A stretch of DNA of 64,000 nucleotides, taken from Psammoneis japonica (Eukaryota). This document shows, in pieces, positions 1,191-48,438 of the stretch (the stretch's first letter is position 1; every line of letters starts with the position of its first letter). Location of the stretch: positions 248,001 through 312,000 of the forward strand of contig QPGO01000013.1 of the NCBI GenBank assembly GCA_008632985.1, read 5' to 3'. The position numbers and the translations under genes were made by a program. The notes beneath the pieces are model-generated. The model was not told where the DNA came from. It saw nothing but the letters and a program-made list of their open reading frames with translations, and ran no database searches.

Positions 1191-1466
1191 TGACAGAAAA
1201 TGAAGGCAAATGGCAAGAATTCAAACAACAACTCCTTGCTGCTGTCTAAATGGCAGATGAGTCTCCGCTCAGAGACCGTTGCAGGAGCCGAAAGACGTGC
1301 AAGTCGGCACAATCGGGCTGCTGTCATTGTTCTTGTGAGCCTTGTGGCTCGAAAGCAAACCACATCACGCGTGAACGCGCGGAACTAAAGCACACAAAAC
1401 TGTGCACGGTAAACTAAACAGCGCGCGATGCTTCGCGCGCACCTAAATCCTGTTCAAATCCTGTCA
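1191..1466 (-). repeat. 3' LTR of copia copy 1
   Basis: Direct repeat of 8025-8300 with TGACAG...CTGTCA termini; adjacent to the PPT. Confidence 0.97.
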
Positions 1467-4400
1467 CTCCCCAGTTTGCTTGAGGAGCCACAGAAACAGA
1501 TTCGACTTCGGATGGAATGAAGTTCCAGAACATGAGGGGGCGGAGAAGGTCCCAGATTTGGGAGCAACCCCAATGCTTGCTGAGAATGTCAGCAGGGTTG
1601 CGGGAGCCTTCGATGAAGTGGAACTCAAGGTGGCCAGAGGCAATTGCCTCACGCACACGGTGGAACGACAGTGCGGTGTGTCGCTTGTGTAACTTGGAGT
1701 GCGGGATGGTGGCACTGTCTACAACCGACTTGTTGTCACCGAACATGCAACTGACATTACGGATCGGGACGCCAAGGTGGCGCAGGGTGATGCGCAGGTC
1801 GATAATCTGCTCAACACAAGTCCTTGCGGCAACAAATTCAGACCCGCAGGTCGCAGTCTCCACGGTGGCTTGTTTCTTAGAGAACCAATCAGCCGGGAAT
1901 TTGTTGAGGAAGTGGAGCATTCCCATGACAGAGCGTCCGGTGAGCATGCAATGGCACAAGTTTGCATCGACGTAGTGGGTGGCAGTGACGAACTTGCCAA
2001 GGGGCAGTGGAGCGTCCTTCGGGATCATCTCTTCTGCTTCACCATACACGGAATGCATCCATTCATGGGCCGGAGCAGGGAGATCCGAACAGTCGGGCTC
2101 TTCCGTGCGAACGTGGAGAGCACCGTGTCGCATCTTGGAGAGGCACCCACAGACGCGCTTGGCACGATCCAAGTGGCCTTGACGGGGCGCAGCTCGGAAG
2201 CTAGAGAGTGACATGACGGCTGTGGCAATGTCAATTCGACCAAGGGACACTGCCCATTGGAGTGAACCAACAAGAGACTGGAACTTGTGGGTGCCATCGG
2301 GTCCCAGCAGTTCGGAAGTGTCCAGTTCGGGGTGGTCACCCTTCTCTAGAGGTGACAGGGCGTTGGTGGCAGGTTTCTCCCCAAACAGTCGGGCACAGCT
2401 GTCGACCATGCGCTCGATGTACTTGCGCGGAGACAGGCACAAGGTTCCGTCGGGTTCCCAGGAAAAGTCGCAACCCAGATGGAACTCAATGGGTCCCGCA
2501 CCCTTGAGCTTGAACTTGTGCTTTTCCGTGAGGGTGTCGACGAAAGATTGAGGGTCCTTCATGGCAATGGCGAGGTCATCCACATAAACGGCAATGCATT
2601 CACAGTGGTCGCCGTTCCTGCGCATCCAAATGTCGGGTTCGGCGCGGCAGGGGAAGAAGCCTTCAGCTCGCAGGCAGTCGGCGAAGCGCTCGTGCCAGCG
2701 GAGACCGGAGCTGCGCAGTCCATGCAGTGCCTTGTGGATGACAAGGATGTGTCCTTCGAGTTTGCCGAACTCGGGTCCAGCTGCAATGTAAAGCTTCTCC
2801 TTGGTGGTGGCTTCAAGGCAGGCATTGCCAATGTCGGTGGCCCATGTCTCCAACTCGTTGAGTTCGGCCAGGAAAATCATCAGCCGAAGGCCACGGAGGG
2901 AGACTGCTCCGGAGTGGACACTGTCGACAGGTGCGTCCGTGAGGTGCCCGTCGGCTACGAGTCGTGCCTTGTGGCGACCGTCGTGTTTCACGTCGTGCAC
3001 CAGGTGCACTCGGATCTTCTTGTGTCCCGCAGGAGGAGTGGAAGACTTGAAGGGCCCGCAGTCATGGAAGACTTCGTATTCGTCGAGTTGGTCCATCTCG
3101 AGATTAGTTGCGTCTCCCCACTTGCGGTTGCCGTTGCGTTCGTCTGGTGACATGGCGTGTTTGTAGTTCCGGGGAACTTCGCATCCATGCTTGTAGCGAG
3201 GTGCAGTGCGGAAGGAGCGAAGCTTGGCTTGGTTGGCCATGCGAAATGGCTTCTTTTGGCGCCTCGCGATGGTGCGGAACCGCTTCCAGCCATCCGTGTC
3301 GAGGAGTCCGTTCTCTCGTGCATAGATGGCACAGGTGACGGGGTCGTCCTTGGCGATGATGGCAAGAGGCTCGGACGTGATCTCCCCACTTTCCCATTCA
3401 AGCATGATGTTGTAGCTGGAGCCTTTCCAGGTTGGGTCGTGAGGCTTCAGAGGTCCTTCGTGTGACACGATGCGTCGAAATTTCCAAACAGTGGTGTCTT
3501 CGTCTTCTTGCTCAATGTGATTCATGATGTCATTGCAGGCAAGGACTTCCTCGCATTCGTCATTGTTGACAGAGCAGACGAACTCAGTGAGCTCGGGATT
3601 GCCATTCACTTTCCATTCGTGGTCTTCGACGGCCTTGACGATGCGAGCTCTGTGGCGTTGTCCATCCTCTTGTGGCTGCATGAGGAAGGCACGTCCAATG
3701 ATGTCTTGCGGATCGAAAACTGGCATCTTGGGTGTCCTGATCTCCCCATCAGGAGAGTCGACGGGGTTGTCGTCATGGCGAGATTTGATGATGGGTTCAG
3801 GTGGCTCCCCATCAGGAGGATCAAGACGCAGGTTTCGGACAGCAGGATCGGGGGTAGCGGAGCGGACGTTGGACCGGCAGAGGATCTTCTGATTCTTGTC
3901 AGATAGAATCTTGAAGGTCATCTGGTGGCCGACGTGCTCAGCAATGCCAACGAAGCGTCCACGCAACTCACGGGATTCGGACGGCCAATCGGAGTCATCG
4001 AGGTGGAAGCACACGGGTTCCCACCAGTGAAAGCGAAGCAATGGGCTGATGTCCGGGGTGGAGCCAGTGAGAGTCTCAAGGGGCGTGCGCCAGTGGAGAC
4101 GTGGGGACGCTGCATGGTTGAGCATGAAGCACACGCACATGAGCGCCAGCAGCCATGTGTGGGCGGGCGAACCAAAACGATCCATGACAGTGTTCGCCAT
4201 GCGCTTCACGGTCTGGTGTCGACGCTCGGCAAAGTTTTGGTGTTGCTGGTGAGGCTCACTTTGCCAGCTAGAGATGAAGAGGGCACGTAGGATCCCGAGC
4301 ACTTTGTTGCTGATCTCAACTTGAGCACGGTCGCCAATGAGTGTGGATGGGGCACCACGTTCACGGATCTGATCCTCGAGTGTGTTGACAAACTCTTTGT

Positions 4401-7083
4401 CCGTCTCAGTGCCATGGACGTCAGTGACAGTAGACTCGGTGCCAACAAACAGTTGGGCGCTGGTGCAACCAGAGTCGATGGCCGGGGTGTCGGCACAAAC
4501 GGTGTCAGTGGCGACAGGCTCGTTGCGGCGGTGCACATTAAGGGCGGGGTTGGGTGATTTGCAGGCCTTGCGAAGGTGTGCACCAGCGGGCATGCGGGCA
4601 TGCTGCGTGGTGCAGTCAAAAGTACGACGGACCGTGTCGGCAGGCAGGAAGCCAAAGCAAGGCCGAAGAGACTCGAAGGGGGGGTCCTTGGGCTGCACAG
4701 TGCGCTCCGGAGGTGGAACATCATCGCCCTGGGGGCCAATCGCATGCAGATGACACTCGTAGAACACGTCGTCGTTCGGAATGAGGTGATCATCGAGGGC
4801 GGACGCATGATCGGCAGACAAGGAAGCGGACATGATGGTCTCGTTGACAACGACACGATGACGGCAGTTGCCGCATTCGTCAAATGGGTTGGCAGTGGGG
4901 TCGTCCTGTGGGTCAGAGATCGCGTCGTACCACTGGTCGTCGTCAGTGACAGAGTGATCGAGGACGGAAGGGTCCCATGTGTCATCACCGGTGAGGATGA
5001 CATGGGGCAGGGTGTCCCATTCGGCGTCAGTGCAAGGTCGCATGGCAACACAAGGCAGGCCAGCCTTGATGTCAATGGGGATGACATGGCCATCAGGAGT
5101 GGCAATGCGTTGCAAGCCGTTGGGCACCTTGACAGAGCGATCGTTGACATCCTGTTTGTGCCATTCGAGCTGGCCGCAGGAATGGATGGTCTTGCCCTTG
5201 CCCGTGCATGCGTGCTGATGGAGCATGGCGATGACGGGACCACGCTGGGTCTCAACAACGGCACCAGCGGCGACAATGGGGATGTCCACCAATTGATGAT
5301 CGTCAATGCCCTGAACGTCGACTTGGCGAGAGGTGCGTGCAATGACGTGAACGTCGTCGCCAGCAATGCCGCCGTTGGCCCCACGATCGACCAGAGCGCC
5401 AGTGCGTGTGGAGCGATGAGCAGAAGCAGAGCAAATGACATTGTGGTTGTCAACGCGGCGGCAAGTGCGACCGTCAAGTTCCATGTCATCTGCAGAAGCT
5501 GGCGGGGTAGAGGAAGCAGCGGATGGCCCCGGTCGACTGGCATTGGGGGCTTGGTTAGGAGACAACAGACGCTGCAGATCACCGGGTGGCAGCGGCTTGC
5601 GCTTGGTGAGGTGCGCCAGGATGGGATTGTCCGAAGTGGCGTCCACATGTGGAGCGGAGTCACCAGAGTCAGCAGGAGTCGTGTTGGACAAGTTGACATC
5701 ACCGTCACTCCCAAGGCGTTGGTCATGAAGGTTAGCCGCAACAGACTCATGGCAGTTGCTGGCTCGCGGGTTGCGGGGAGGTGGACGAGAATGCTCAAGG
5801 ATGATCGCCTTGGAGGAATCGGGCAACGAATCCCAGAGCCGTTGGTGGTCGGGAGGGAGACGTCTCCATTGGACACCGGTGAGGCTGGGACCGTGGGTGT
5901 GGGCAGCATTGGCTTGAAGGACGTCAATGTCGCTGTCAATGTCGTAGAACACATCGTCGGATGGTTCCTCGGAGCAGACGTCGTGTGCGCATGTGGCGCG
6001 TCGGGGAGCTCAAGGTGTCGTCTTGGGTTGAAACGTGCTGTCGCACTGAGCTGCGGCGGAGAGGAGCAAGCCACAGTGTTGATCGCATGTGAGGCTCTTG
6101 CCACTCTGCGCATGATGCTGATCAGCTTGGTTCTTGACAGCACGGAGTTCCTCGACAGGGTGCACGGCATTCTCGAGCATGACGCGCTTCTGTCCTTCAG
6201 AGAAGTGGTCACTGGCCGGGATGAGTGCCTCGTGCTTGCGCAACTGATCTTGCCAATGAAGGATGAACCCGTGGGTCGGACCTTTCCAAGTGCCATCACC
6301 AAGACGCGCGGTGGTGAGGTGCGTGAGCAGGGTGGAGGACTCGACAGATGCGCGGGTGGAGGCAAGCGCGTGCTCAGACAAGGAGCGGCAGACGGTCTGT
6401 GCGTCAGAAGACCCCACATTTTCGCGAATGAGAGCCTTGCCCTTGTCGGTGAGAAGGATGCGTTCGAAGATGGCGAACATGTGCTTTTGCTGTTCAGCAA
6501 AGAGCAGTTTGTCTTCGGGGCTGGTCGGTTTGTACGACGAGTCTAGAATGCACTCGACGTCTTGGGCACGGGCTTGTGCCACAAGTGAGGTGTGCCAAGT
6601 GTGCCACTGCTTGTTGGATTTGAGAGCCGTGAAAGCGGTGGGATCACGCTTGATGCCTCGCTTGAAGTCCCGCACCGGGTCGCGTGCCTTGGTCGGGTTG
6701 GTGACATGTGGAGGTGCAAGGGGTGAGCTGCCGATGGACACAGAAGACATGTGGTCGGGGCTGAGGCGGCAGGCAAGGAACTCGTCATGCGTGGACAAAG
6801 AGGAGTCATTGGCAACGTCAAGACCTTTGTGTGCTTTGACAATGTACAGACTGACTGGCGCTGCTGACATGTTCTCATGACCACGGGGCAAAGGGATTGC
6901 ATCAGTGCCGTTGTCGCACTCAAGCGAGTCGATTTGGGACGGCATGAACGCGAACAGTTCCTGGTGCGAGTCCGTGCCGTCTTGGGCCAAAGCCAAACGA
7001 AGAGGACTCCCAGCACCTTGGGCAAGCACGGTTCCAACCACGTGCTCGAAACCATCGGTTTGTTGCTGACGAGTGAGAACCAT
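1414..7083 (-). pseudogene. gag-pol of copia copy 1; one in-frame TGA at 6010-6012 and heavy Tyr->His/Cys substitution
   Basis: ORFs 6010-7113 and 1414-5952 are in the same frame. Copy 2 has CGA where copy 1 has TGA. Motifs read KALHGL, NACLEA and VHDVK instead of KALYGL, NAYLEA and VYDVK. Confidence 0.92.
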
Positions 7084-8009
7084 GGTGGACAAAGGTGGTG
7101 TCAGGACAATCAATTCTGGCTGGGAAGCGAGGGTGGACTCGAAACTTGGGTGAGAATGGACTTGACTTGAAATGGACTTGACTTGAAATCTTGAACTATC
7201 TTAAAATCAGAAGTCGCCGGGCTTTGTTGTCCCGTTCGTTGTTGAGTGCCAAACTTCCCATCCGGTCCGCAGAGTTGTGCCGGCACGTCCGAACCCGCAG
7301 CTGGCGGCGCTTTGGGTTGCTTGCGAGCGGAGCAGCGGGTTGTAAACCCCTGCAGGCAAGCTGACTAGAGGTGGACAAGACCCCCGAACCGTTCTTGTTT
7401 TATGTCGGTTGGATTTCCCGATCAGGCTGGCTGGTTGACGCAGGCGTCAGGTGCTGTGGACGAACGAACAAACGCGGGAAAGCACCCTCGCCCCAACGTA
7501 GGCTGCAATCACGGCTGCCTGCTCTCACAGTCGTCCTCGTGGACCTAGTGGAACTGTAGAGCACCAGCAGTCCGGGGTAGATCAGGTGCAATGGACTCGG
7601 TGTGCTTGTAGAGTGGCAGCAAAACCGCAGTCCAAAGAGTGGATAAAGGTTCTTGGCCGTGAAGATATGCATATATATATACATGTCTTCAGCGACGAAG
7701 ATCCTTGAATATGTAGGGTTCTTGACCGTTAACCGAGGAACAGGTATATCAAGGGATGTTGATCAAGGATAGACTTGGATATGACCGTTGAATATAAGTC
7801 TTCAGCGATCAAAGGTAGTATAATCAATCCAGATATCCAGCGGTAAGGAGACTTGACGGTGACGTTAACTTCCTGCCGATGCCCTGGTATTGAATGCGCG
7901 TAGACTTGCCGATGTATGTAGAATATATACGGAGGTCCACGTAGAATTGAAATAGCGTCGTTGGTAAATCAACGACGACGATGGCGGTTGCTCAATGGGT
8001 TGACAATGA

Positions 8010-8024
8010 GCAAGACTGTTAATC
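8010..8024 (-). promoter_or_regulatory. Putative primer-binding site of copia copy 1, complementary to a tRNA-Asn anticodon arm
   Basis: gcaagactgttaatc on the + strand abuts the 5' LTR and contains the GUU anticodon loop CTGTTAA. The same sequence occurs in copy 2. Confidence 0.55.
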
Positions 8025-8300
8025 TGACAGAAAATGAAGGCAAATGGCAAGAATTCAAACAATAACTCCTTACTGCTGTCTAAATAGCAGATGAGTCTCC
8101 GCTCAGAGACCGTCACAGGAGCTGAAAGACGTGTAAGTCGGTATAATCGGGCTGCTGTTATTATTCTTGTGAGCCTTGTGGCTCGAAAGCAAACTACATC
8201 GCGCGTGAACGCGCGGAACTAAAGCACACAAAACTGTGCACGGTAAACTAAACAGCGCGCGATGCTTCGCGCGCACCTAAATCCTGTTCAAATCCTGTCA
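8025..8300 (-). repeat. 5' LTR of copia copy 1
   Basis: Direct repeat of 1191-1466; retains most of its TA sites. Confidence 0.97.
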
Positions 8301-8305
8301 CGGGG

Positions 8306-11300
8306 GGTGCTGACGTGCAAGTCTTCTTCCATTTGGCATTGCACCACCCGGCCAGATGTGGCATTTGAGCTTTTGGTCCACAGCCCACAACACAGTGCTG
8401 TTCTGCTGTGGCATTGCTGCAGCTTTCGCTTGCACCTGTGCTTCTTTTGCTCATCTGCTTCAGCTTCAAAAATGGGTGCCACAGCTTTGAGAGAGTCAGT
8501 TTTGAGGCAGATGACATGTTCTTTGTGCTGCCTCTCCTGCATCTTTCATTGCCGTGGCTTTGCTCTGCAGGTGTGCAACACATGGAAACATCAATGCTGG
8601 TGGCTGCACATGTCAGATGCACGTTTGGGCCAATGCAGCTGAGCATCAATCACGACCTTGCCCCTCTCATCTCTCAGTGGCTGCATGCAGCTGATCTGGC
8701 ATGCACAGTTTTCCAGGTTTTGTTTGCCCAGCAGGCATGCTTCTTGGTCCAGGGCACAAAGTTGCGTGCTTCTGTGTGCTGACTCCTTGGCTTTGCATTT
8801 TTCCTGGCTTGAACAATCACAGAAAGTGATGCTCCTGATGAGTGCCTTGCAGAATGGCAGCTGTCTTGTGTTGTCACAAGTGGGTGGCTCAAGTTCCCAA
8901 GCACTCCACATCCACTTGACCCCAACTTGAAGGGTCCCAATGTGGAGGAGTGAAAAAGAGGAGGATTGAGGAAGTTGTGCACATGAGTGCTCTGCATCAG
9001 TGGTGTGCACCAAATGTGTGCACTGCAGCCAGACTGTTTTGGCAGATGATGGGTCCGACCTCTTTTTAGATGGCCCAGTGGGTCTCGCTGAGATCTGCCT
9101 CTTCTCTCACTCTTTCTTGCCAGTGTGTGCATTGTTGCTGTTGCCAGCTTGCAGGGAGTTCTGTGTTGATTGCTGACTGGGCTCCTGTTGCCGCTCTTGG
9201 CAGGTTGTGGCCTTGTGTTGTGTTGCACTCTTCCACATTGTGAACCCCATCTTGGCTCACCTTGTTTGCAATCCAATCAAGTGTGACTCAAGTTCATGAC
9301 TCTGCAACAAGTGTTTTTTTTTCTTAAAGCCGCGGCATTTTTTGGACTGCACAACAATGCCAGTCTTCTGTGCACTCAGGAACAACTTCTTGGTGCCCTT
9401 GTTTCAACCAAGGTCATGTTTTGGAAAGACCCTTCTGTTCCTTGACGAGCCACAAAGTTCCTTGTCAGCCTCTGCAGTGGAGAGATGTTTGATCTGGGAT
9501 CTTTTGAGGATGAGAAGCACACACAATCAAAACATTGTGTTTGTGAGCTCTTCTCTGAACACATCCTTCACAACCTTGTCATGTGGAGAAGATGATGTGA
9601 GAGGAGCCCCCCACTGTTGGAAAAACTTGGCTTGCCAGAACAACAGAAAGTTGCAGCTCTTACCAACAAACAACAAACAGGAGACAAACTCAGCCACTGG
9701 AATGCCAAATTGATCTGCCACTTGTGTTGTTGGGGTTGTCAGCAGATTGCCATCCCTTTTGGTTGGTCTGGCACAGCTTTTCCCAGCTGGAAACAAAAAA
9801 ACAGGCTTTTGCAAATGCCAGAGCTTGGAAGATTGCTCAGAGCTTGCTGGTGCATTTGATGACATTGAGGGTGAGAAGGATTTTTCACTGACAAAGATGA
9901 AACATGTGCTGTCTGGTGTGTTCCTCAGGGCTCTGCTGGTTGATGGACTTGGTGACAATCCTTTTGCTGACTGATGCTGGCAGTCATCACAGCTGCACAG
10001 ACCAGATGTGTGACATTGCTCTGCTGTCAAGAAACAACTCTGGGAACAGCTCTGCATTCCCCAACATTGTGGCAATGGTGTGGGGATGGTCACCAACAAA
10101 AATGCTTCACAGTTCAGTGCCTCACCTTTGAGACCAAGAAAGGCTGAGCCAAATGAAGAGGCCAGGACATTGTTGTGGATGCCAAGGAACAACCCAATGA
10201 CAGCAGACAGGACTTGTGTGGTGAGTGCATTTTTGGTGTTTGAGAGTGACGACACTTCTCTTGAACATGCCGTTGCACTCTCATGCCTGCATCCAGAAGG
10301 CAGCAACTGCTGGCTGTTGGGCAAAAAGGTTCCTCAAATGTGCCGCTCCCCAGTGGGTTGCTTTCTCCTCCTGCTGCAACCAGCAGCACTGCTGAGAAGA
10401 GACGTCATCTTGCCAACAGGTCCGCCACTTTTTTGCACAAGAATGAGGGCCATTTTCAGCTGCATCTCACCACATCTCATGGTTTCTCACCAAACCTCCT
10501 CCTGATAAAATCTGACTTGTGGTTTCATGCAGTTTTGGGTCCATCAAGGAGATGGTTTCACCAAATTTGGGCTTTCACCCTCCATCTGGAATGATCATCC
10601 TGGTCATCTGCATTCCTTGCCACTTCAATTGTTGCAAACATGAAGCCATCCCATTCCTGTGCCCTCATTTGCCAGAAGTCAAATGTGGCCACAATGACAC
10701 TGGACAACATCCAACAAGACACATTGAGCTCAAAAAATTGACTTGATGCATGGTGCACACAAAGATTCCACTCAGGAGTCTCTGTTCAAATCCAAGTCAC
10801 GGTTCACATGTTTTGGACTTCTTGTCCCTCTCATCCATGGGAGTGACGAGCATGCTTGGTCTTGCCTTTCAAGACATCTGTTGGCCAAGAACCCCAAATG
10901 GCCACCATCATGTCCATGTCTCCACCATCATGTCCATGTCTTTGGGTGAGATGGACAAGTTCATCACCTGGTTTGAATGCAAAAATTGCTTGAAACCCAA
11001 CACACTGGGAATTCCAGCCTTGCAGAAGAACAGTCTGAGTGCTTGCTCAGTGCTTGCAAACCTCCCTCTTGGTGAAGCCTGTGGAACTGTGTTCCGCCAT
11101 TGGTGGGGCCACAGTTCCAGATGTGTGCTCCTCCTCTGTGCTTTTGTCTCTCTTCTTCTTCTTTGACAGCATGCTCACATGCAACTTGCTTTCTTGGAGT
11201 TCTTTGGCATGGTCAAAGAATTTCTGGCTGACACAAAAGCACACAGTCTGATGTCATTGACTCTGAACACCATGACTTTTTTGCCAGTTTTCTCATCTGG

Positions 11301-13880
11301 CTGTTGGAATTTGTCCACCACTTGGCTGTCATGTGTTGCACAGTGCTTGCTCTTCACATTGTCCTTTGAAGTGAGAATGTTTGATGTCATGCTCTTTGTT
11401 CCAAGCTTTGCAACCCTCCCCCCATCCAGGCATGGCACAGTCTTTGTCCAGGGTGTCCACTCCTGTGTTCATGGATGGGTCAACCTTGTTCTTGGCTGGT
11501 CACATGTTGTGTGCCAGTCTCCAGTTTGCTGCCATGCTGAGGGTGGAGCTGTTGTCAACGATGATCTCAATTGTCCATCTTGACTTTTTTCATTGGCTTG
11601 ATTTGTGCTTGTCTCTGGTCTTTCATTTGCCAGTTGCAACCTGTGCCATGCAGTGCTCCTGTTTTAGCTGGAGCAGGCTTTCAGTTGGATCTGGTGGTGT
11701 TGATGCTCACATTGTCACCATCCACCTCAAAAAGTGGTCATCATTCAGAAAGGGGGCTCCACTTTGGCCATGACCTCCTGCAGCAGAGAGGAGCCAGTGT
11801 CTGTGCCAAGAGGAAAAGTGTGACCACAAACAAGGGCTCGGGAGAGGAGCCAATCCTCACAAAGTCTAACAAATTGGAAAAAAAGATTTGTGGGGAAAAA
11901 TGCCAGACAGCAAAAACATTTTGCAGGGGGGGGTTTTCTCTGGCAGTTTTCCCATGAGCAATGTCACAACTCTGGTGCTGGTCCGCTGACCCTGGGGTGC
12001 AGTGTGCACAGACCAATGTCATCAGGGCCATGCAGTTGACAATCAATGTCTCCACTTTTCACATGGCCAGACCATGGCTGAATGCCACATCTTTCCATCA
12101 ATGAATGTGGGCAGATTTGCACTCATGCAAGGACATTGAGTGCTTGGGGTGATGAACACACTGCTCTGATGTGACTGCACAACACATCACATCCAAATTG
12201 CAGCAGCCCTTTCTGCATGATGGTGCGTGCTGGACATCTGAATGGAATGTGAGCACAGACAACATTCACAATTGTGAACAGAATCAGCAACAGCATCATT
12301 GTGTCAACAACAATGCTGGTTTTCAGAGAGTGTTTGTCTGGTTTGATCTGCCTTGCTGAGCTGCTGCACTTGCAAAAAAAATGCAACCTCTCCTGTCCTG
12401 CTGTCCATCACACAGAGATTTGCATGCTCTGCTGCTGCCACCCTGACACCACAAAAGAACTGCACACCAGTTGAGCAACATCCTCAAGAGCCAGGGATTT
12501 GAGACAAATCCACATGACATCTGTGCAGTGAATGAGGTGGTCAATGGAAATCAGTGCTCAGTGAGTGACCTCAAGATCTCTCACAGCATGGACTCTGCTG
12601 TTGTGACAGTTGTTCTGTTGAAGTCTTTGTTGCAGAAGAGTGTGCAGCAAACACTCTGATCTGCTGACCATGGCTCAAGTTGACATTGTCCACAAACATC
12701 TTGGCATGGCTGCTGGCCATGGCAAAAAAAGAGAAAGTGCAAGCTGGGCAGGCTCTTGTGTGTCAATGAAATGAGAGAGCCCCAACCTGCATGTGGTGAC
12801 ACAACCCTCTCCTGTTTGAAGTCAGTGAAGAGCACTCAGTGACTCCATTGGGTGCAGATGAAAAGGATGCAGTCTGCTCCATAAAAGGCTTGGCCAGACT
12901 CAAGCCGCAACTTTGTTTCTGTGCACACAAACCTGGGGCTGAGGAGTGGACATGGGTTGCTCTTGCTGAGCACATTTTGACATGAAAGGTCACATCACAG
13001 TTGCCTTGAGTTCAGGAGGAGGAAAAAATGCCAGACAACAACTTTTCCAAGCAAAAGCTGAGCATGAGGAGTTGCACAGCAACTGAGTTGGCTTGTGTGG
13101 TGGTGCACAATGGCATGCCCACACTTTTTTGTGGACAAGAATCTTTGTGCAGGGCCTGAGGTGATGGGAAACAAAGGAAGGGCAACAACCTCATCAAAAA
13201 AAGACAACAAGAGCATGCTGCTTGGTCTTGGAAGCCCAAAGCATGGGCAAATGTTGAGAGCTGAGCAAACAAAAAGTGCATCAATGTGAGATGCCTTTTC
13301 TTGACTGGCTGCACTCTGAAGGGAGACTTGGCCATAAAGTGTTGTCCAGCTGGGGCAGTGCAATTGGCTTTTTTTGTGCCAAGCTGCTGCAAGAGCTGTG
13401 CGGCTCTTTAGGTTTTAAAAAGTCAGACCATCAAGAACATGTCAAATGATGGCCTGGGTCAATGGGGTGGATGTGCCATCTTGTGAGCATCTGCAACCAA
13501 GAACAGCAACAGGACCAACTGAACAGAAAATGGTGCTGAAGATGATGCCAACTTTGGAGCAAGGTTTGCAAACAAGAACAAGAGTGCTGTGAGGGCAATG
13601 CAAGCTTGTGACAAAAAAATTCTGGACACTGGGCAAAAGAGAACAAAACTGGCAAAGTGAGAAAGAAGAGGGGCAAATGACATTGGCTTGACACTCTAAC
13701 ATGATTGTTTGTCCTGTCACTCATTGGTGCATGCAGCAGCCATTGCACAAGAATGGATCTGTGGTTTTGCATGTCCAGTGCCAAAACTGCCAGAAGTCAT
13801 TGTTTCAATGCAAGGGAAAGAAACCTCTTGCTTCTTCTCCTTCTTTGTCAACAATTTTTTCATGTTGTGCTTCAAAAACC
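8306..13880. mobile_element. Nested, highly decayed copia-type relics on both strands
   Basis: Fragmentary motifs, e.g. GFETNPHDICAVNEVVNGNQC (~12490, + strand; resembles copia RT GFxxNPYDxCV) and integrase-like fragments on the minus strand. Nearly devoid of TA and CG. Boundaries approximate. Confidence 0.6.
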
Positions 13881-13889
13881 AGGACCGCA

Positions 13890-14440
13890 TGCCAGCGGCC
13901 AGACTCTGCTGCAATCACCAGTCATGATGAGAGGCTGTGAACTGCAATGTGCAGAGTTGTGAGGCAGCTCTGGGCCCTTGTCTTATTCTGGATCATTGTG
14001 TGATGGCTGACTGAGGTGTGGAGTCAAAACATGGACCCAGCCAGTGGCCAGACTCTGCTGCAATCACCAGTCATGATGAGAGGCTGTGGGATGCAATGTG
14101 TGGAGTTGAGAGATTGACAGCTGACTGAGGTGTGGAGTCAAAACACAGACCGAGCCAGTGGCCAGACTCTGCTGCAATCACCAGTCATGATGAGAGGCTG
14201 CAGACTGCAATGATCTGTGTGAAGTTGAGAGGAGGAACTGAGCCCTTGTAAACACTGGATCATTGTGTGATGGCTGACTGAGGTGTGGAGTCAAAACATG
14301 GACAGCCAGTGGCCAGACTCTGCTGCAATCACCAGTCATGATGAGAGGCTGTGGACTGCCATGTGTGGAGTTGAGAGGGAGCTTTGGGCCCTTGTGTCAT
14401 GCTGGATCATTGTGTGATGGCTGACTGAGGCATGGAGTCA
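13890..14440. repeat. Tandem repeat, 4 copies of a ~115-150 bp unit
   Basis: Core gccag(t/c)ggccagactctgctgcaatcaccagtcatgatgagaggctg at ~13891, ~14040, ~14154 and ~14305. Confidence 0.9.
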
Positions 14441-14769
14441 TTCTGTTGAACTGCAAGAACACTTGCTTGTCTCATTGGGAAAACCATGACAACATTTGAT
14501 GATGTGAACAGATGTGATCTCTTCTGCTGGCCCTTTGCCCATGCCATCTGCTGCTCCTTCCTGGCAGCTGTGCTTCTGCCCTTTTGGTTCTGCTGATGCC
14601 TTTGCCACTCACCTCATTCAATCTCCCAAATGCACCTCTCTTCTCTGCTGCCACCGCTGGTCACACTTGACCTGCTTGATCATGCCCAGCAGAGAGGAAG
14701 TTCCTGTAAATGAGAAATCAAACTACGTCAAAAGTACAAGGATGAGAAGATGCAGTTATCCAATCGATT

Positions 14770-16086
14770 CTATCTCATGTCATTGTGCGCTTCATCAATC
14801 TTTCGAATGGCCTCGAGACCACCTGACACAATGCCAACAACTTTGCCTGATAAATCTCTGTCGTCTGCAAGAGGATCATCTGGGTTGATTCTGACAAGCA
14901 TTGCTTCACCACCCCTCCTGGTTAGCTGCTCAACTATGGACTCTGACTGACAGCGGGATGTGGGCACATTATGGCCACACCCAATTTCAATGATGCACAC
15001 TTGCATGGGGTCAAGATGACCTCGCTCTATTGCCAGAGAGAAGAGAGCCCTTTTCCACAAGTCAAATCTTTGTTCCTGCGCCTCATTGTCTGACCAATGC
15101 AGGTCTCCAAACATCAAAATTGCCGGTCTTGCGGGTGCTCCGCACTCACCACATTGGGGCCAATTGGGAGAATCAGAGCTCCACCCTTCACCCTCTGCCC
15201 CAATCATGCACTTCAAAGGTGCCTGCCTTTTCCGGCCCACGACATGCCCCACGTGTGTGCCAGTGTCGGCATTGCCACCAGGTTCTTCCTGATTGATGGC
15301 ATTGTCATTTTCATCAGTGGCAGACTTTACAGCAATGGCAGTTTGAGGCGCCAACATTGAGTCTGAATCCACTGCAAAGCGATGGTTCATCGGTGCCTGC
15401 CAGATGTTTGCCGCGCAATTTTTTTGTGGGCCCAACCAACGCTCAACGCCTTCAAGGTTTTGGTTCGACTCAAATCGAAGTCGAGTCTTGGAACACTGCC
15501 AAAGCTCAATGTTGCCGTGACATTCACGCATCTCGTTGGCATCAAATACGTCAAAGCTGTGCGCATCGACGTTGGACGTAAAGGTGAAGAAAGCCCCGGC
15601 ACATCCCTGCACCTCGCATGGCTTGGTGTCAGAGAAATCAACCTTGTCCGAATCATCATCGTGAACAAGAGACGAAGCGGAGACTTGCCCTACTTTGGCT
15701 CGAATCTCATCAGCTGTCGGTTTCTTGTTCTTGTCATCTCGCCACTTGGCAACAATGTGACATCCCTCGTGAGGCTGTGCATCACGACAGTCGTTGAAAC
15801 ATTGCCCCCACCATCCACAAAAAATGCCAGGATCGGTTTGAACCCAGTGCGGCTGACAAATGTCGTGACATTCGAGTCCACGATCCAAGTGCGCCGGGAC
15901 ACGAGCAACGTCCGCACACACGGCCAGCCCACTGTCTGCGCTAAAACCGGCGCCCGTCATGAGAATCAAGACGTGAGCTTGGGCGAGTGCTTCTGCTGCC
16001 ATGACGCAGTTTGCGTTAACGGTGTCTTTGAGTTGTTCCAGTGTTTCAGAATCACGGCTGCGCTGAAAGAAATCTTCGTCAATCAT
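14770..16086 (-). pseudogene. Sir2/sirtuin-family NAD-dependent deacylase; ORF open but hypermutated, function uncertain
   Basis: Motifs TGAGFSADSGL, TSNVDAH, ECHGN, CGECG..RPAILMFGD, EIGCG and RINP. No Tyr in the 454-aa ORF. ATG at 16086 (MIDEDFF). Confidence 0.8.
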
Positions 16087-16207
16087 GATGATGCCTCGTT
16101 CGCTCTTCACAATCAGCCGCACTTTGCAGTGCACTGATTAGATTGAGCATCACATGGAACATCATCGATCCGAAACGCACACGAAATAAAGATCGTAAGA
16201 AGCACGA

Positions 16208-22240: not shown

Positions 22241-23809
22241 GATAAACTGCGTTAAACCTTTCTCTTATCGATTGCAGTCAGTTAGACACAGCGGTTTAGT
22301 CTCTTCGGTACATTGCTTGTGTTTGTTGTCGCATCGATCGCTGCGTTGCTGTTATTTATGAGAAACCCGAAAGGAGAGCGTCTGTCATGCGTTCTCAACA
22401 GTTGTCAATTATTTTGCCCTGGCGATACAATGCACACGCAAGAAGTGTCGTTGAGAGCAGGAATTCACAACCCGAAGCCCTTTTCTGTTCTGATTCGACA
22501 GTCAACAAAAATTTATATGGAAGGAGAAACGCTGCAAGCGCTTCAAGCATTTGTCCTTAAGCGCACGACCACCGTCGCGGATTGCCTGTGACCGACTGCT
22601 CCATGCATGTGGCTGGCCAGCTGCCGGCAGTGCAAATGGCACTTTCTGCTCTGCTTTGGTGGAGTGGAGCACGCACACGATGCCAGTGGTGTGGACAACT
22701 GTCAGCCAACTTTTGCTGGGGCAAGCAACCAATCATCTTGTGAGGAGGCACCCTGGTGCTTGTCGATGAGAACCTGACAAAACATGGCAGCAGCGCTGTC
22801 ATCAAAGAAAGTCACAATGGGGTGGACAGGGGAGGGCAACTGGCACGAGTCACATTGTCAACTGCAACGCAACACTGAGGGAAAACCTTGGATTGGAAAA
22901 GATGCCTTGAAATTGACAAGTGAAAACGCAACAAGTGCGCTTTCGAAAATCTTGTCTCTTCGAGAGAATGAACAAGCAATGATGAAATTTTGTCAACAAT
23001 TGTTTGCCAACATTTGTGGCAATGGGCAGAGACCCTCGTGGAATTTCAATGACAGTGTCTCCCAAGAGTTGTTGGTCATGGAATTGTTGACAGAAACAGG
23101 TGGCATCAACAAATGTTGGCCAACACTTGTTGTTGGTCTCCTCAAGTAGAATGCAAAGCTGGATGGTGTGAAATTCATCTGTCCACAGGTTCCACAAAAA
23201 ATGAAATGATCAAACTGCACAAAGTGAAACAATGAAACTCATCAAGCAAAACCTGTTGTGTGCCTGGATCCTTGCAGCTTCAGCCCTCCTTTGACCCTGT
23301 GAGAAGGTTGAAGTTCTTGCCACGACAGAGCCATTGAACGATGATGTGAGTGCCTGAAAGTGCCTCATGTGTGTCCCCCAAATGTTCAATGCTGCACACA
23401 TGTGAAGCTGATGTTGTCTCCTGCCTTCTGTCCACCCAGGCAATGCCACAAGAAGCAAGCTGTTCCAATGTGCAGCGTCTTCAACCAATGTCAGATGACG
23501 GGGTCCAAGGAGGCACATTTGGATCAGATCATGACAATGAACTCAAGAAGGAGCCACTTTCCACTGGGCACCTCCATCTACAAGCTGCCAGTGGTTCCAG
23601 AAATCCAGAGGAAAAGCCTCTTTCTATGGTGAGTTCTCATTGACGAGCTTTGCACAACAACTGTCATAACGCTGAATTCTTCTTCGCAACTGTTGGCTTC
23701 CGCTTTGGCTGTCAGCGTGTTGCTCCACACAAAGACCCAGACACCAGTGAGGCAGAGGATCAGGACCCTTCCGTTGCAGCACGACATGCTGTTTCTTGCA
23801 AGGATTGCT

Positions 23810-25310
23810 CACTCAGCCTCAGCAACACTCAACTTTTTGATCTTGTGCTTGGTTCAAGCAATGATGAAAGGATCAGCGACTGCCACCACATGGCAGACAA
23901 AACAGACAACCCAACAGCTGTTTGTGATTGTTGTGCCAAGGGGGGCAACCTGGTTTTGGTGGGGATGGTGTTGCTCCAGGTCCCCATGGTCAAGGGACTG
24001 GCTGTGTCAAGAGCAGAAAGAACTTGCATTGCTTTGCAAACACGTGCCCCATTGATTCTCAGCAGTGCAGAGAAGGCATCCATGTGCACCAGCAGAGTGG
24101 AGGTGCTCAAATGTGCTGGGCGATTAAGAACATGACCATTGCACAGATGTTGGAGTTCCAATCAAATGTCCCCAAGAGGAAACATGCAAGGAAAAGTGGC
24201 TTGGGATGAGCAATTTTGTGATTGAATCAAGGATTGGCAACCACTGCCACATGTCAGATGTGACGGCCAATCCAAGAACTTGTTGTGATTGGTGTGCCCA
24301 TGGACAACCTGGTCCCGGTGGGAAAGGTGTCCCTCCATGCATGCATGGCAGTCAACTTGTTGGCTGTGTTGAGGGCAGAAAGGAGCCAAATTGCATCGTG
24401 GGATTGAGCCCTTTTGTCAGCAGTGCAGAGAAGGCATCCATGTGCACCAGTGACTGCAAGCAGAATGGAGGTGCTCAAATGTGCTGGGTGATTGAGAATG
24501 ACCATTGCATGGATGTTGCAGCTCCAATCTTGTGCCCAAGGGATGCACATGCAGCAGAAATGAGTGGCTCATCAGGTTCAGCAACACTGAACTTTTTGAT
24601 CTTGCTCTTGATTCAAGCAAAACTGAAAGGATTGGCCAACACTGCCACATGGCAGAAGAAACGGAGTGACGAGTGACAACCCAAGAGCTGTTTGTGATTG
24701 GTGTGCCAAGGGATGACCTGGTTTTGGTGGGATGGCATTGATCCAGGTCCCCGCGGTCAAGGGACTGGCTGTGTTCTGAGTGGAAAGAACTTGTTTTGCT
24801 TTGTGAACATGCACCCCATTCTCAGCAGTGCGGAGAAGGCATCTGTGTGTGCCAGTGACTGCAAGCAGAATGGAGGTGCTCAAATGTGCTGGGCAATTAA
24901 GGACGGACATTGCATGAATGTTGGAGATCAACTCCCGTGCCCCAAGGATCCATGCAAGGAGAAATTTTACTGAGTCTCAGTGACACTCAACTTTTTGATC
25001 TTGCGCTTTATGATTCGTTCAACAAACAAAGGATTGGCCAATGCCGCTGCACAGGAGATGCAACGGCCAACCCAAGAGCTGGTTGTTCTTGGTGTGCCAA
25101 TGGATGGGGTGGTGGTGTTGCTCCAGGTTGCTGTGAACAAGGAAGTGGCTGTGTCAAGGATGGAAAGAACATGCATTGCTGTGTGGACACGCATCCTTCA
25201 GCAGTGTGGAGAAGGCATCCATGTGCACCCGTGACTGCAAACAGAATGGAAGTGCTCAAGCACACTGGGCAATTGGGAATGACTGCTGCACGGATGTTGG
25301 CATTCCAATC
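23810..25310. repeat. Degenerate tandem repeat, ~4 copies of ~380-400 bp
   Basis: Recurrent cagcaacactcaactttttgatcttg and cagtgcagagaaggcatccatgtgcacc...ggaggtgctcaaatgtgctggg near 23820, 24200-24480, 24580 and 24980. Confidence 0.8.
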
Positions 25311-26867
25311 ACATCTTCACACTGCACTTAGACTGCACTCAGTGGCTTCAAGAACAGTTGCAGCTCACAGACGTCCACATTGACAAGTGATGTGAAATGA
25401 GTCAATCTGTTTCTTGTGCACAAGAAGACACAACTGGGACCAAGCATTTAAAAAAAAAACTTGCAGGCCACTCTTGGAATCTTTTAGTTCAAATTTCTCA
25501 AAATCTCCATTTGCAAGAGCACACAACTGCTCATCAAACAGCTGCTTGCTGCAGGTCCAAACTGCAAGCACGTGTCTGGCTGCAAGCCTTTCTCTTGAGA
25601 AGGTGTGGATGTGAACAGGGAAGTGCACTTTGTTGATGGAATTGCCCAAGGCAAAACACCTTTACAATTGTTGAGGCAGGAACTGTCTGACTGCTTTGAA
25701 TCATCCACCTCACTGAACGTCAGTGTCAAAATTGGTGCCTCTGGTTGACAGGTGGTGGTTGAGCAAGAAGAGCCACATCTCAGCAGATTGTGTGCATGGC
25801 ACCTTCAATCATTGGGCACAAAAAAATTAGCCTGCTCAATGCTGTGAAAAGCTTTAGGATGTAGAGGGATTCAAAATGCACTTGGTTGTCTGAAAGCTCC
25901 TTGCTGTCATCAAAATTTGCAGTGATGCACAATGCTGGGAGAGTGACTTTGTAAGATGCAACAGCCTTCCCAAAGCCTCAACTCATCACAGAGCTTTCAT
26001 GAGTGACTTTGATGGAGTTTTCATTCTGATGGCAACCCAGCAAACCACCAGGGGTTCCAAACTGCAACAAAGCAACAATTGCAACAAGCTGAGGTTGACA
26101 GCATGTTGCAAGGAGTGGCACACATGTGCCCTTGTCTCACAGGTGGGCAGTTGTGGCCAGTGCACTCACAATCAGCTCAAGCTGGGAGGAGAAGGAGGAG
26201 GTGTGAGGTGTGGTGGTGGCTCAGGAACAGCCACTCACCAATGATGGTCACCATGTGTTGCAGATCATCAGTGGAGAAGAAGAGCAAGAGGAGAACAAGC
26301 ATCAAGAGAAAGTTTTGCAAAAAATGTGAAGCTGCTTGCACACCTGCCTGCTGTGATTGCCCACCTCACAACCACTGCAAGGGGGTGCATGTCATTCTTG
26401 GTGGCTGGCTGCTCTCTTTTGTCAAGCAATTTGCCGGCCACACACAGGTTGCTGTGAAACCTCTGGTGTTTGTTGGCACACAACAATGGCCTTCTTTCTC
26501 TCTTTCTTTTTTCTCAGTTGCTGTGCTGAGATGACCCACAGATGCAGGTGGTGCACCCAACTCTTGAGTGCCCAGGGCAGCAGTGTGCCTCAGTCTTGAA
26601 GATTTTTGCATGTGTGCCTGTGTGTTGCAACTTTTTTCTGGGTGTGGCGGTGTGTGCTCTTCTTGCTGTGCTCAAAAAAAGCAACTGCTGTTGAACAAAG
26701 ATTGGGATGGTCAGGTCAGGCTGTGACAATGCCCAGACAGCTTCAGGTGGAATTTGGGAGGCTCTGGCACATGCTTTGTCACAACTCTGCTTCTTCTTGA
26801 GGCTGTTTTCAAGCAGCACATCACTCAGCTGGAGGACCCCACACCCACTGACACCTGCCTGCACTGG

Positions 26868-32545: not shown

Positions 32546-33694
32546 GATGCTCTGATCTTGAGCTTCAGAGCCATCCCAGAATTGTCAAGAAATGATTTTA
32601 AGATGCCACTGTTGATCCCAGAGCAGCTTGTTGAGATTGTTGCTCCAACCTCAGCTCTGCTGATGGGATCTTCACCGACTTTGATGAGCGCTTGGAGAAG
32701 GCTCTCTTCGCAGATGAAGGAACTCTGCTGTTGCACTCTCTTTTTGCTCTCAAAAAGCACCACAAAGACTTGCAGATCTCATGTCTGTGACATTGATGGC
32801 TGGCTCATGGCTGGATCCTGCTGCGTTGATTGCATCGTTGACAACTTTGAAGCCAGCAGAGATGCGCTTGCAGTTCCTCCAGAAGGTTGCAGCTCAAACA
32901 TGAAAGGTCTTACCTGTTTGCATTGCAACTGCAAAAAGCTGTCCCATTTGTGCTTGCATTCAACTCTGCAGCGGCAGCTTGCATGCAAAAATGGTTGCAT
33001 CGCAAACATCAATGGCGGTCACCACTCGCATTTCCGTCCAACTGCTGTGTCCTTGAAAAGTTGTCAGATTGATGGAAATCATGAGAACACATTTGATGTC
33101 ACTCAAGAAGCTCAACATGAGAGACTCAAAAAGTTTCTTGACTTTGCTTCATTGTAAATGACCGAAAGTCAGCGGACGCAAACTTGGAGAAGTTGCAATG
33201 CAAGAAAGTGGTGCAAGTGATTTCTCCCATTGGTTGCCCATCTCATCACAAACTCAGCCAGTGTGCTGACACCATTTGCCAAAATCTGGCATTGGTCATG
33301 TTGTTTGGTTGCAGGCAACTGGCAGTCATTCACAGTCAAACGTTCTCTTGAGGCCGCAGCAGACAGTTCAAATGTTTCATTGGTCTGCCTGCCAGCATTG
33401 TACACACCGCTCATGAAGAACTTTTTGAGCTTTTGCACAGTGAATCTCGATGGCTCTGCCTTTCCTTGATCCAAAAATTAAGGGAAAAATAAACCAGGTG
33501 CATCACTTGCCACAATAATTAGATTGTCAAACGCAGCGTAACCAGGCTGGATCAGATCCCAAACAATGGTCACAATGTCTGATCCCAATGTATCCAGCAC
33601 CTCTATGCGGGTGATTCGTTCAAATGTCCACTGATTTGGTGGAACTATAAGGTTAGGTTTAAGAGGGAACAAAAACTGTCGACTTCATTTCGAC

Positions 33695-34765: not shown

Positions 34766-35670
34766 CTCTCGAGTACTCACTTCTTTTCTTTTGATTCGAT
34801 TCAATGCTTAACCACGAACTGTGTTGGTGAGCTAATGCCGAACAACACTTTTGGATGAGCGATTGAAAAATCAAAATACCGATATATATTTGGATATATA
34901 TGATTTAGGCACGACACGCGCGACTTCAGACTGACTCCTTCCATAAACACATCATAGCCGCAGCCAGCGACCCTGAGCAAAAAAACACACGCACGATGAA
35001 CCTCTCTTTCGGCTCCCCGCCCCCATGACAACGCTGCATACATCCCGGCATGGCCTCCCGATCCGCCACAGAACGCATCGTTCCATACGCCTTATCGCAG
35101 CCGTCTACACTGCCATCGTCATCATCGCCGCCATCCCCACTCCTCATCGCTCCTTCCTACTCCTACCTAAGCACTCACCGCCTCCCTATCGCCAACCGCC
35201 ACCACCGCCTCCCCTACTATTGCCCCTCTTACTGCCCCAACGCTCTTGCTCCCGACTCCATCTGTCCCACCCATGCCGCCCAACTCCTTCCTAATGACTC
35301 CGACCTTAAATACTTCGCCAACCGCCACTGCCCTTGCCGTCTTACTGTACCGACATCGCCAACCCGAACATCCAACGCTCACACAATTTCTCGCCCAACG
35401 CTCAACACACAAATAAGCCATGTGCACTGGTACAAAAATCACGTAGAAATTGTACGTAGAAAAATTATAAAAATCAGGGTTTGGGCCGATTTTTTCTCGT
35501 GCTTCTACCGTGCTTCTCCGCTCCACCGACGCCTCAAGGAATCGTTTTCCCCTGAAACCATTGACACTTTACATGATGACTTTTACACAAGCAACACCAT
35601 TCTGTGCATGAACACTTCAAAATTCCATTTTCAGAAAATTCGATCAACACTTCACTGCGGTCCCATTTGA

Positions 35671-48162: not shown

Positions 48163-48438
48163 TGACAGGATTTGAACAGGATTTAGGTGCGCGCGAAGTA
48201 TCGCGCGCTGTTTAGTTTACCGTGCACAGTTTTGTGTGCTTTAGTTCCGCGCGTTCACGCGCGATGTAGTTTGCTTTCGAGCCACAAGGCTCACAAGAAT
48301 AATAACAGTAGCCCGATTATACCGACTTACACGTCTTTCGGCTCCTGTAACGGTCTCTGAGCGGAGACTCATCTGCTATTTAGACAGCAGTAAGGAGTTA
48401 TTGTTTGAATTCTTGCCATTTGCCTTCATTTTCTGTCA
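48163..48438 (+). repeat. 5' LTR of copia copy 2 (the least mutated of the four LTRs)
   Basis: Direct repeat of 55000-55276. Confidence 0.97.

Follow-up and report, generated by a model that had tools for sequence, protein, structure and literature searches.

The stretch of DNA analysed in our study, hereafter called the window, comprises 64,000 nucleotides (nt) of contig QPGO01000013.1 of the Psammoneis japonica assembly GCA_008632985.1 (positions 248,001 to 312,000, forward strand), and all coordinates given below refer to the window. The window was found to contain two copies of a Ty1/copia long terminal repeat (LTR) retrotransposon in opposite orientation. In both copies the dinucleotide TA was found to be changed to CA or TG at many sites, and the same loss of TA was found in other parts of the window. 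The features of the two copies are as follows.

1191..8300, minus strand: Ty1/copia LTR retrotransposon copy 1, full length, found by self-BLAST, LTR alignment, tblastn and the RVT_2 domain
8025..8300, minus strand: 5' LTR of copy 1, with TG...CA ends and 14 TA remaining
1191..1467, minus strand: 3' LTR of copy 1, with 5 TA remaining
8301..8305, minus strand: target-site duplication (TSD) of copy 1, CCCCG in the orientation of the element, with its partner at 1186-1190
7301..8300, minus strand: spared zone of copy 1, consisting of the 5' LTR and most of the ~940-nt leader
1417..7113, minus strand: gag-pol frame of copy 1, 1899 codons with 15 Tyr, conserved Tyr being changed to Cys or His
48163..55276, plus strand: Ty1/copia copy 2, full length, with 96.85% identity to copy 1
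48163-48438 and 55000-55276, plus strand: 5' and 3' LTRs of copy 2, with 17 and 7 TA, respectively
48158-48162 and 55277-55281: TSD of copy 2, TTTCC

The identity of the two copies in the self-BLAST extended over 7115 bp. All four LTRs were 276-277 bp long, starting with TGACAGG and ending with TCTGTCA. Each copy possesses its own 5-bp TSD (CCCCG vs TTTCC) in unrelated flanks, and the two copies are therefore separate insertions. The copia-type reverse transcriptase domain (PF07727, RVT_2; E = 2.6e-25) was found at residues 974-1185 of the open reading frame (ORF), in the last third of the ~1900-aa frame, and PF07727 was present in all of the 120 relatives listed. An intact homolog of 1859 aa matched copy 1 as one tblastn high-scoring segment pair, running from 7083 to 1504. 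The gag homology begins at 7083 and is separated from the 5' LTR by an unusually long leader of ~940 nt (7084-8024 in copy 1 and 48439-49381 in copy 2), which is rich in TA (33-36 per 500 nt). The frame of copy 1 was found to be open over its 1899 codons with a single stop, a TGA at 6010-6012 where copy 2 contains CGA, and the earlier statement that the ORFs of the element remain open was thus borne out. The frame of copy 2 is shifted at three places, near 51.88, 53.65 and 54.40 kb, and is interrupted by one CGA>TGA stop. Neither the copy nor two intact homologs gave a Pfam match to an integrase family, and ORF residues 300-900 had 0 hits when searched against the PDB sequences.

In the alignment of the two copies, 218 of the 7116 columns were mismatches and 7 contained gaps. 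Transitions accounted for 209 of the mismatches and transversions for 9. At 184 of the 218 mismatches both copies were found to have a pyrimidine-purine (YR) step, a class which makes up 50.5% of the columns (binomial p ~1e-25). There were 41 pairs of adjacent mismatches, 35 of them CA in one copy and TG in the other; when 218 mismatches were placed at random in 2000 trials, adjacent pairs averaged 6.65 and never exceeded 16. The remaining pairs of unequal YR steps were CA/CG (36), CG/TG (25), CA/TA (25) and TA/TG (28), and no CG/TA pair was found. The sites of the methyl-CpG type, with CG in one copy, numbered 61 and the sites with TA in one copy 53, whereas the steps intact in both copies were 472 for CG and 79 for TA. 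In the gag-pol frame, 96 of the differences were non-synonymous and 43 were synonymous, and 11 codon pairs were His/Arg.

The original prediction had described about 30 codons which are read as His in one copy and as Cys, or surviving Tyr, in the other. In our study, 33 such sites were counted in the 1899-codon frame (Cys/His 22, Cys/Tyr 6, and His/Tyr 5). Most of the peptide pairs quoted there were located and polarised in the pol ORF, for example KALHGL/KALCGL at residue 1077, but the two gag pairs were not. The Tyr content of the 1512-aa ORF, given earlier as about 13, was exactly 13 (0.9%) vs 3.1-4.4% in 60 homologs, and its Cys content was 2.8% vs 0.5-1.3%. The GTA and CTA codons, which had been said to act like the Tyr codons, did so: all four Ala/Val pairs were GTA/GCA, and three of the six Leu/Pro pairs were CTA/CCA.

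The direction of change was determined from the homologs. The set consisted of the first 60 of the 78 relatives of at least 1700 aa among the 120 listed, which were 66-75% identical in the part searched, and a position was taken as conserved Tyr where at least 70% of the 60 homologs contained Tyr (n = 39). At these 39 positions, copy 1 contained Cys at 15, His at 11, Tyr at 10, Phe at two and Trp at one, and copy 2 contained Cys at 15, Tyr at 14, His at six, Phe at two, Trp at one and an X at one. The other conserved residues were mostly kept in copy 1 (Arg 55/60, His 29/30, Gln 19/20, and Trp 19/20, with the Cys positions kept as well); pooled over all non-Tyr classes, 661 of 746 were kept (Fisher p 3e-18 vs Tyr). 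The 24 conflict sites of the pol ORF were also checked for homologs with Arg, His or Cys, the states which would speak against a Tyr ancestor. At these 24 sites the two copies differ within the set Tyr, His and Cys. The commonest residue in the 60 homologs was Tyr at 16 of them and Phe, Met, Leu, Ala or Asn at the remaining eight; Arg was never the commonest residue and occurred in at most 6 of the 60 homologs at any site. Judged by the homologs, the ancestral codon was TAY (Y, pyrimidine) and not the CGY of Arg, and the changes were TAY to CAY or TGY, i.e., TA to CA or TG. Ordinary decay of CpG accounts for the CG/CA and CG/TG differences. Arg was found at none of the 30 conserved His and 20 conserved Gln positions, and so CA does not proceed to CG. 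The observation first made on the two copies is therefore real, and its polarity was correct.

The two outcomes, CA and TG, were found in the ratio 38:33 in copy 1 and 22:30 in copy 2; a further count, at sites flanked as R-TA-Y (R, purine), gave 126:92. Runs of like outcomes matched those of shuffled sequences in 13 of 13 sequences (runs test), and no strand-coherent runs of the kind left by repeat-induced point mutation (RIP) or APOBEC were found in these 13 sequences. One and the same site was found to be CA in some lineages and TG in others. Both strands are affected, and each site is resolved independently. The flanking preference was 0.34 for T[A]C and 0.37 for T[A]T vs 0.16 for T[A]A and 0.13 for T[A]G. 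In the window, the base 5' of the changed T was most often G (24 of 48), which is the TAY preference on the opposite strand.

The changes were found to be unevenly distributed along the element. The first 1000 aligned nt contained 49 TA intact in both copies and 14 changed sites (11 with TA in one copy and three CA/TG), whereas from nt 1000 to the 3' end 30 TA were intact in both copies and at least 73 sites were changed. The 5' LTRs of copies 1 and 2 retained 14 and 17 TA vs 5 and 7 in the 3' LTRs. The LTRs of one insertion are identical at integration; those of copy 1 now show 13 differences over 277 positions, every one of them in a YR step. Of the 218 mismatches between copies 1 and 2, no more than 34 fall outside YR steps. 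By ordinary substitutions the insertions are very young, and both elements were thus inserted recently. The spared end of copy 1 adjoins a fully erased domain, whereas the mutated 3' LTR adjoins a normal gene flank, and the targeting thus follows the layout of the element and not the neighbourhood. Six sites in the 3' half of the LTR read TA in the 5' LTRs of both copies, whereas the 3' LTRs of both copies have one and the same CA or TG there. Differences between the 5' and 3' LTRs cannot be passed on by normal retrotransposition. The six common differences are either parallel biased changes or the result of gene conversion between the inverted copies, which lie 40 kb apart.

Outside the two copies, about 30 kb of the window was found to be nearly devoid of TA and CG. 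The domains are as follows.

8501..14500, no strand: erased domain with 13 TA (400 expected), 27 CG (350 expected) and 1390 CA+TG
23001..33000: erased domain with 46 TA (705 expected) and 103 CG (548 expected)
35501..48000: erased domain with 50 TA (868 expected) and 179 CG (698 expected)
55501..57000: border domain adjoining copy 2, with 8 TA (110 expected) and 32 CG (77 expected)

The observed/expected ratio (O/E) of TA was 0.02-0.2 in the domains and element bodies vs 0.44-0.65 in the genic stretches of the same window; in the genic DNA at 16.5-22 kb and 58-64 kb, TA was at 0.53-0.62 and CG at ~1.0 of expectation. In the erased domains, CA and TG reached 1.8-1.97 times the expectation. The density of TAA+TAG was 6.2/kb in 35501..48000 vs 36.7/kb in genic DNA, and the GC content of the copies was 0.56 vs 0.48 in the background. 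Older repeat pairs within the domains were also found to carry CA/TG conflicts, for example 29 in 1136 columns. At the borders of the domains the loss of TA extended 0.5-1 kb beyond the loss of CG, and in one repeat pair the member at 56.7 kb, which contains no TA, retained CG which its partner at 26.9 kb had lost; TA is therefore lost first and CG later. Among the 57 stop-to-stop ORFs of at least 130 aa in the erased domains, no Pfam family was found above the threshold, with one sub-threshold match to DUF441, and tblastn with two intact copia homologs found no copia sequence in the window besides the two copies. The process is therefore much wider than first described: it is an erasure of TpA across the window, and it is neither tyrosine-specific nor element-specific. 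The slower erasure of CpG, the sparing of the 5' LTR and the leader, and an already published report of the same signature in another alga also go beyond the original prediction.

Two fragments of a histidine-kinase gene (1-815 and 57637-58452), whose best relative is 52% identical, were 86.7% identical to each other and differed by an ordinary spectrum of 58 transitions and 50 transversions. This pair serves as an internal control, and duplicated genic DNA is thus not automatically targeted.

The window was compared with contigs assembled from a public sequencing run (X1). Erased stretches of 739 and 544 nt were reproduced letter for letter in these contigs, which confirms the erased domain at 8501..14500, whereas in another record of 1668 nt, 14 letters and 3 gaps differed from the window; because of these 14 letters, X1 is not a mere repeat of the assembly consensus. 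Copy 1 was matched by 13,136 contigs of X1 with a summed word depth of 70,000-120,000, which is not a copy number, vs ~63 on the flanks. The variation among the contigs over copy 1 consisted of 64 A>G, 87 C>T, 74 G>A and 57 T>C changes and 46 transversions, and CA/TG double changes were polymorphic at several of its sites. The copia family of copies 1 and 2 is very abundant and diverse. At 10441-13266, within an erased domain, the word depth of the X1 contigs was 28-36, about half of the 60-65 found nearby, which suggests that the haplotypes are strongly divergent there or that the region is hemizygous.

A copy of a host gene at the edge of an erased domain was also affected.

14770..16134, minus strand: sirtuin-like host gene copy, 454 aa with 0 Tyr, frame open

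The sirtuin-like ORF was compared with 58 homologs, a position being taken as conserved Tyr where at least 60% contained Tyr. All seven conserved Tyr were found to be replaced, six by Cys and one by His, whereas the other residue classes were nearly intact (for example, Ala 19/19, Arg 9/10, and Trp 8/9). The word depth on this ORF and on the unique flanks was ~63, as in single-copy DNA. A 1400-nt contig of a second run (X2) was 96% identical to the ORF, with 60 other letters, of which 30 were C in the window and T in the read and 18 were G in the window and A in the read. The X2 contig may represent an intact expressed allele or paralog, with which these letters are consistent. Copy 1 was not covered by X2, which is not taken as evidence on its expression. 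In the tree of this one gene, built from a mutated ORF, the sequence fell in a clade with 100/98 support, all named members of which are diatoms, and the host is thus probably to be placed with the diatoms.

Proteins poor in Tyr were also found in the databases. Four of the 150 best cluster representatives for the pol region were of this kind and contained Cys or His at conserved Tyr positions, namely P0458 at 15/17, P0413 at 10/15, P0510 at 4/7 and P0498 at 2/9. A search with P0413 led to 80 metagenome loci (L001-L080) of another copia family, mostly from microbial-mat assemblies. Across the 80 loci, the O/E of TA fell from 0.82 to 0.08 and that of CG ranged from 0.43 to 0.99, with the GC content rising from ~0.45 to 0.51. 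For the detailed comparison we used 37 loci which contained the whole 361-residue match at ~77% identity or above, excluding 43 partial or more distant loci. In their common segment of 1083 nt, the TA counts ranged from 67 to 3 and the CG counts from 28 to 54. The changes were polarised by the majority state of nine copies with at least 60 TA, which left 120 of the 1083 columns undetermined and gave 43 reference TA sites. In the most mutated copies, 36-40 of the 43 sites had become CA or TG. L018 kept one site and contained 22 CA, 18 TG and two other states, and L007 kept seven and contained 19 CA and 17 TG. The other reference steps were largely kept (CA at 50-59 of 60, 83-98%; TG at 56-63 of 64, 88-98%; CG at 11-20 of 21), and the non-YR positions (~587) showed 18-45 changes, consisting of 14-37 transitions and 3-14 transversions.

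The rates were calculated from 22 of the 28 non-reference metagenome copies, six near-identical twins being dropped. The rate per A at TA was 0.085, 0.204 and 0.376 in the low, mid and high groups, respectively, and that at AA, CA and GA was 0.02-0.05. The rate at CpG was flat across the three groups (0.10-0.13) while the rate at TA climbed, and the loss of TA is therefore a process of its own and not a by-product of age or of CpG decay. No LTR pairs were found in the seven long metagenome loci in which they were sought. Nearly all of the metagenome loci had in common only a 2.2-kb unit with fixed ends (3009-5243 of L006), and the surrounding contig DNA was unrelated.

A similar process has been described in mutation-accumulation lines of Bigelowiella natans, where 231 of 302 nuclear single-nucleotide mutations lay in two integrated viral regions and 230 of these 231 were A>G or T>C on TpA, at ~6e-7 per site per generation (Mettrop et al., bioRxiv 10.64898/2026.01.13.699255, 2026). 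According to the text of the same preprint, the genome contains clusters poor in TpA and rich in CpA+TpG, reverse-transcriptase and DDE domains are enriched among the TpA-poor coding sequences, the process was on in some lines only, and an ADAT2-like candidate was proposed (bioRxiv 10.64898/2026.01.13.699255). In both cases nearly all changes are A>G or T>C and lie only at TpA, which turns into TpG or CpA according to the strand. The changes are confined to stretches of foreign or silent DNA next to genes that mutate in the normal way, can strike single-copy DNA, and leave a long-term footprint of TpA depletion with CpA+TpG enrichment. The copia case agrees with B. natans on every testable sequence criterion. 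There are also differences from what the preprint reports. B. natans is a chlorarachniophyte, whereas the host here is probably a diatom, a stramenopile, and diatoms are not mentioned in the text of the preprint. The targets there are viral, whereas in the window they consist of long anonymous domains and an LTR retrotransposon family of very high abundance. The viral region there has a Rho of 0.45, whereas the window is near saturation, with a TA O/E of 0.02-0.09, and shows erasure of CpG in addition. Three features found here do not appear in the abstract, Results and Discussion of the preprint, namely the preference for TAY, the absence of strand runs, and a 5' LTR and leader which are spared.

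The changes in the window resemble RIP of fungi in being a host process which introduces context-specific transitions into repeated or foreign DNA and kills transposons. RIP changes C to T, typically CpA to TpA, which lowers the GC content, creates TA and stop codons, and leaves strand-coherent runs. In contrast, A/T is changed here to G/C, the GC content is raised, TA is lost without the creation of TAA or TAG, and runs are absent; the earlier distinction from a RIP that creates stops was thus upheld, the direction found being the opposite one. Diatoms contain DNMT4 enzymes related to the RIP factor RID, for which no function is known (PMC9998398). In full-text literature searches, no report of TpA hypermutation in diatoms was found, and a term search of Maumus 2009 (PMC2806351) found nothing in the text covered on mutation bias in diatom copia elements. 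The signature has probably been reported before in one unrelated alga only, B. natans, and is found here in a probable diatom.

We interpret these observations as TpA-specific hypermutation acting on integrated DNA, with a probability of roughly 0.75, a figure which applies to the process and not to an enzyme. Action on integrated double-stranded DNA is favoured because the strand balance, the asymmetry of the LTRs, the spared leader, the host gene copy, and the saturated domains are unexplained by editing of RNA or cDNA or by polymerase error. From the divergence of the LTRs within each copy and the strand symmetry, we infer that the changes arose de novo in chromosomal DNA. Each TA becomes TG or CA, i.e., A changes to G on one or the other strand, at a rate which exceeds that of every other change by one to two orders of magnitude. 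Tyr codons are removed (TAY to TGY or CAY), GTA becomes GCA and CTA becomes CCA, and the frames remain open because TAA and TAG can no longer arise. A slower and separate decay of CpG to TpG or CpA follows, and old sequence is left with CA and TG as its sole YR steps. The process most likely works site by site on both strands of integrated chromosomal DNA. It is most likely aimed at silenced or foreign DNA rather than at one sequence family, with adjacent unique DNA within its reach, and it obeys the layout of the element, in that the body and 3' LTR are mutated but not the 5' LTR and leader.

Some points weigh against this interpretation. What was observed here is the footprint in the sequence, and neither an enzyme nor a base modification nor a de novo event. 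The absence of strand-coherent runs fits a slow decay of each site at least as well as a deaminase. In principle, the leader could be spared because cis-acting signals are under selection in copies which are mobilised in trans. The sirtuin-like ORF may be a duplicate, given the transcript-like contig which is 96% identical to it, and by itself it is no proof of spread into unique DNA. Independent mutation after insertion predicts the six common LTR outcomes only with gene conversion or with a strong site bias, which is seen at some sites. The Tyr sites changed in the same way in both copies (Cys/Cys 9 and His/His 3) outnumber those changed differently (7), and part of the damage therefore predates the split of the copies; damaged elements thus still transposed, which leaves some room for a component linked to replication.

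With regard to the chemistry, we tentatively propose, at somewhat less than an even chance, a deamination of adenine to inosine at 5'-TA-3', with TAY preferred, by an ADAT2/TadA-like enzyme which would be brought to silent chromatin. Enzymes of the TadA type act in a UAC context, which the TAY preference resembles. The other possibility concerns the chemistry only and needs no mutator enzyme: a symmetric modification of TpA in silenced chromatin, such as an oxidised thymine (5-hydroxymethyluracil, 5hmU, or 5-formyluracil, 5fU) or a modified adenine, would mispair at a high rate, in the way that 5mC leads to the decay of CpG. In dinoflagellates, 5hmU is found preferentially at TpA. A mark of this kind would suit the restriction of the changes to TA and CG, the self-complementary YR steps, with the non-palindromic CA and TG as sinks, and it would also suit events that are independent per site and per strand without runs, the loss of TA and CG in the same domains with graded borders, and the spared promoter-proximal zone, as at unmethylated promoters. 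No such mark at TpA is known in diatoms, however, and a literature search gave no diatom paper among its top 20. In the metagenome family, the decay of CpG does not climb with the loss of TA, and the process in B. natans was, by the account in the preprint, episodic (11 of 15 lines, with 2-45 mutations each), which is better fitted by an enzyme that is switched on and off. Decay dependent on a mark is the main alternative and only somewhat less likely than the deaminase.

Compared with hypermutation of integrated DNA, a change linked to replication, i.e., A-to-I editing of the element RNA by an ADAR- or ADAT-like enzyme or a context-specific error of the reverse transcriptase, fixed in each round of retrotransposition, was found to be improbable. 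In its favour, some of the changes are common to both copies and older than the insertions, the family is very abundant (the summed word depths given above vs ~63), and UA is a favoured context of ADAR, which prefers a 5' U, as cited in the text of the B. natans preprint (bioRxiv 10.64898/2026.01.13.699255). Like ADAR and APOBEC, the process in the window is a transition hypermutation of the deaminase type directed at parasitic nucleic acids. However, editing of RNA or of the minus strand predicts a single outcome on the sense strand, whereas CA and TG are balanced and interspersed; ADAR and APOBEC act on RNA or single-stranded cDNA and leave clustered signatures on one strand which are fixed at integration, whereas here both strands are affected without clustering. 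The LTRs within each copy have diverged after integration, the 3' LTR being the more mutated, and the 5' LTR and leader are spared though the same polymerase copies them. DNA other than retroelements is affected as well, in the erased domains, the host gene copy, and the unique flanks, and the mutations of B. natans, as reported in the preprint text, arose de novo in single-copy integrated DNA.

Decay of methyl-CpG, in which an ancestral Arg codon CGY would become CAY or TGY and TA would arise by a second step, is refuted for the His/Cys conflicts and, as their explanation, is most improbable. The CG/CA (36) and CG/TG (25) pairs, the 11 His/Arg codon pairs, and the old domains without CpG do exist, and it stands as the slower second process. 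The homologs contain Tyr and not Arg, however, and 55/60 conserved Arg are intact vs 10/39 Tyr; CG is intact in both copies at 472 sites vs 79 for TA, with 0 CG/TA pairs, and the metagenome copies range from 67 down to 3 TA but all contain 28-54 CG. The loss of TA resembles deamination of methyl-CpG in being a site-by-site and strand-symmetric loss of a self-complementary YR step to TG or CA in silenced DNA, but the latter cannot change TA, and the loss of TA is the faster one here and runs ahead of that of CG at the borders. A sequencing or assembly artefact, for example miscalls at modified bases in DNA which still contains TA and CG, would be limited to two motifs and to repeat-rich DNA as the changes are, but it is hardly credible, since the k-mer contigs of X1, at ~60x word depth, equal the erased stretches (739 and 544 nt; 0 differences) and differ elsewhere, independent Illumina-era metagenome assemblies give the same graded series, and database proteins of other sources show the change of Tyr to Cys or His (P0458, 15/17).

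If the same TpA editor acts in diatoms and in the chlorarachniophyte, it would be a widespread genome defence of marine algae and not a curiosity of one species. A further suggestion, which we advance with considerable doubt, is that TpA-specific DNA editing guided by chromatin or RNA is a major and ancient transposon-killing defence of distant algae of the SAR group (stramenopiles, alveolates, and Rhizaria), namely diatoms and chlorarachniophytes, and a mirror image of RIP which raises the GC content, leaves frames open and does not enter the promoter-proximal kilobase of its targets. Under this suggestion, the agent would be a natural enzyme or mark which turns A:T into G:C at TA in double-stranded chromosomal DNA. 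Such an enzyme would be the first adenine editor of DNA known to serve genome defence in nature, and such a mark would be a new heritable modification of bases at TpA.

The process also affects annotation. The divergence of LTRs overstates the age of an insertion, all 13 differences in the 277 positions of copy 1 being of the hypermutation type. DNA without TA is poor in stops and gives long spurious ORFs in all six frames. Random outcomes of CA or TG cause the copies of a family to diverge fast, and old repeats therefore look unique. The local GC content is raised by TpA hypermutation.

A few other features of the window were observed. Local tandem or near-tandem duplications of 82-90% identity were found by self-BLAST at 13875-14440, 29429-30318 and 60075-61360. 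At 16009-16675, amid single-copy genic DNA, the summed word depth of X1 was 7896 vs ~63 around it, with contig joints and loose ends at 16208-16531, and this segment is probably a small high-copy repeat or an insertion-polymorphic element. In the SPX/MFS-type gene at 18137-20000, a contig of X2, a run labelled 'DNA?', aligned in spliced form, skipping 19045-19126, 19283-19386 and 19744-19840; the run X2 thus looks like RNA and marks three short introns in this gene.

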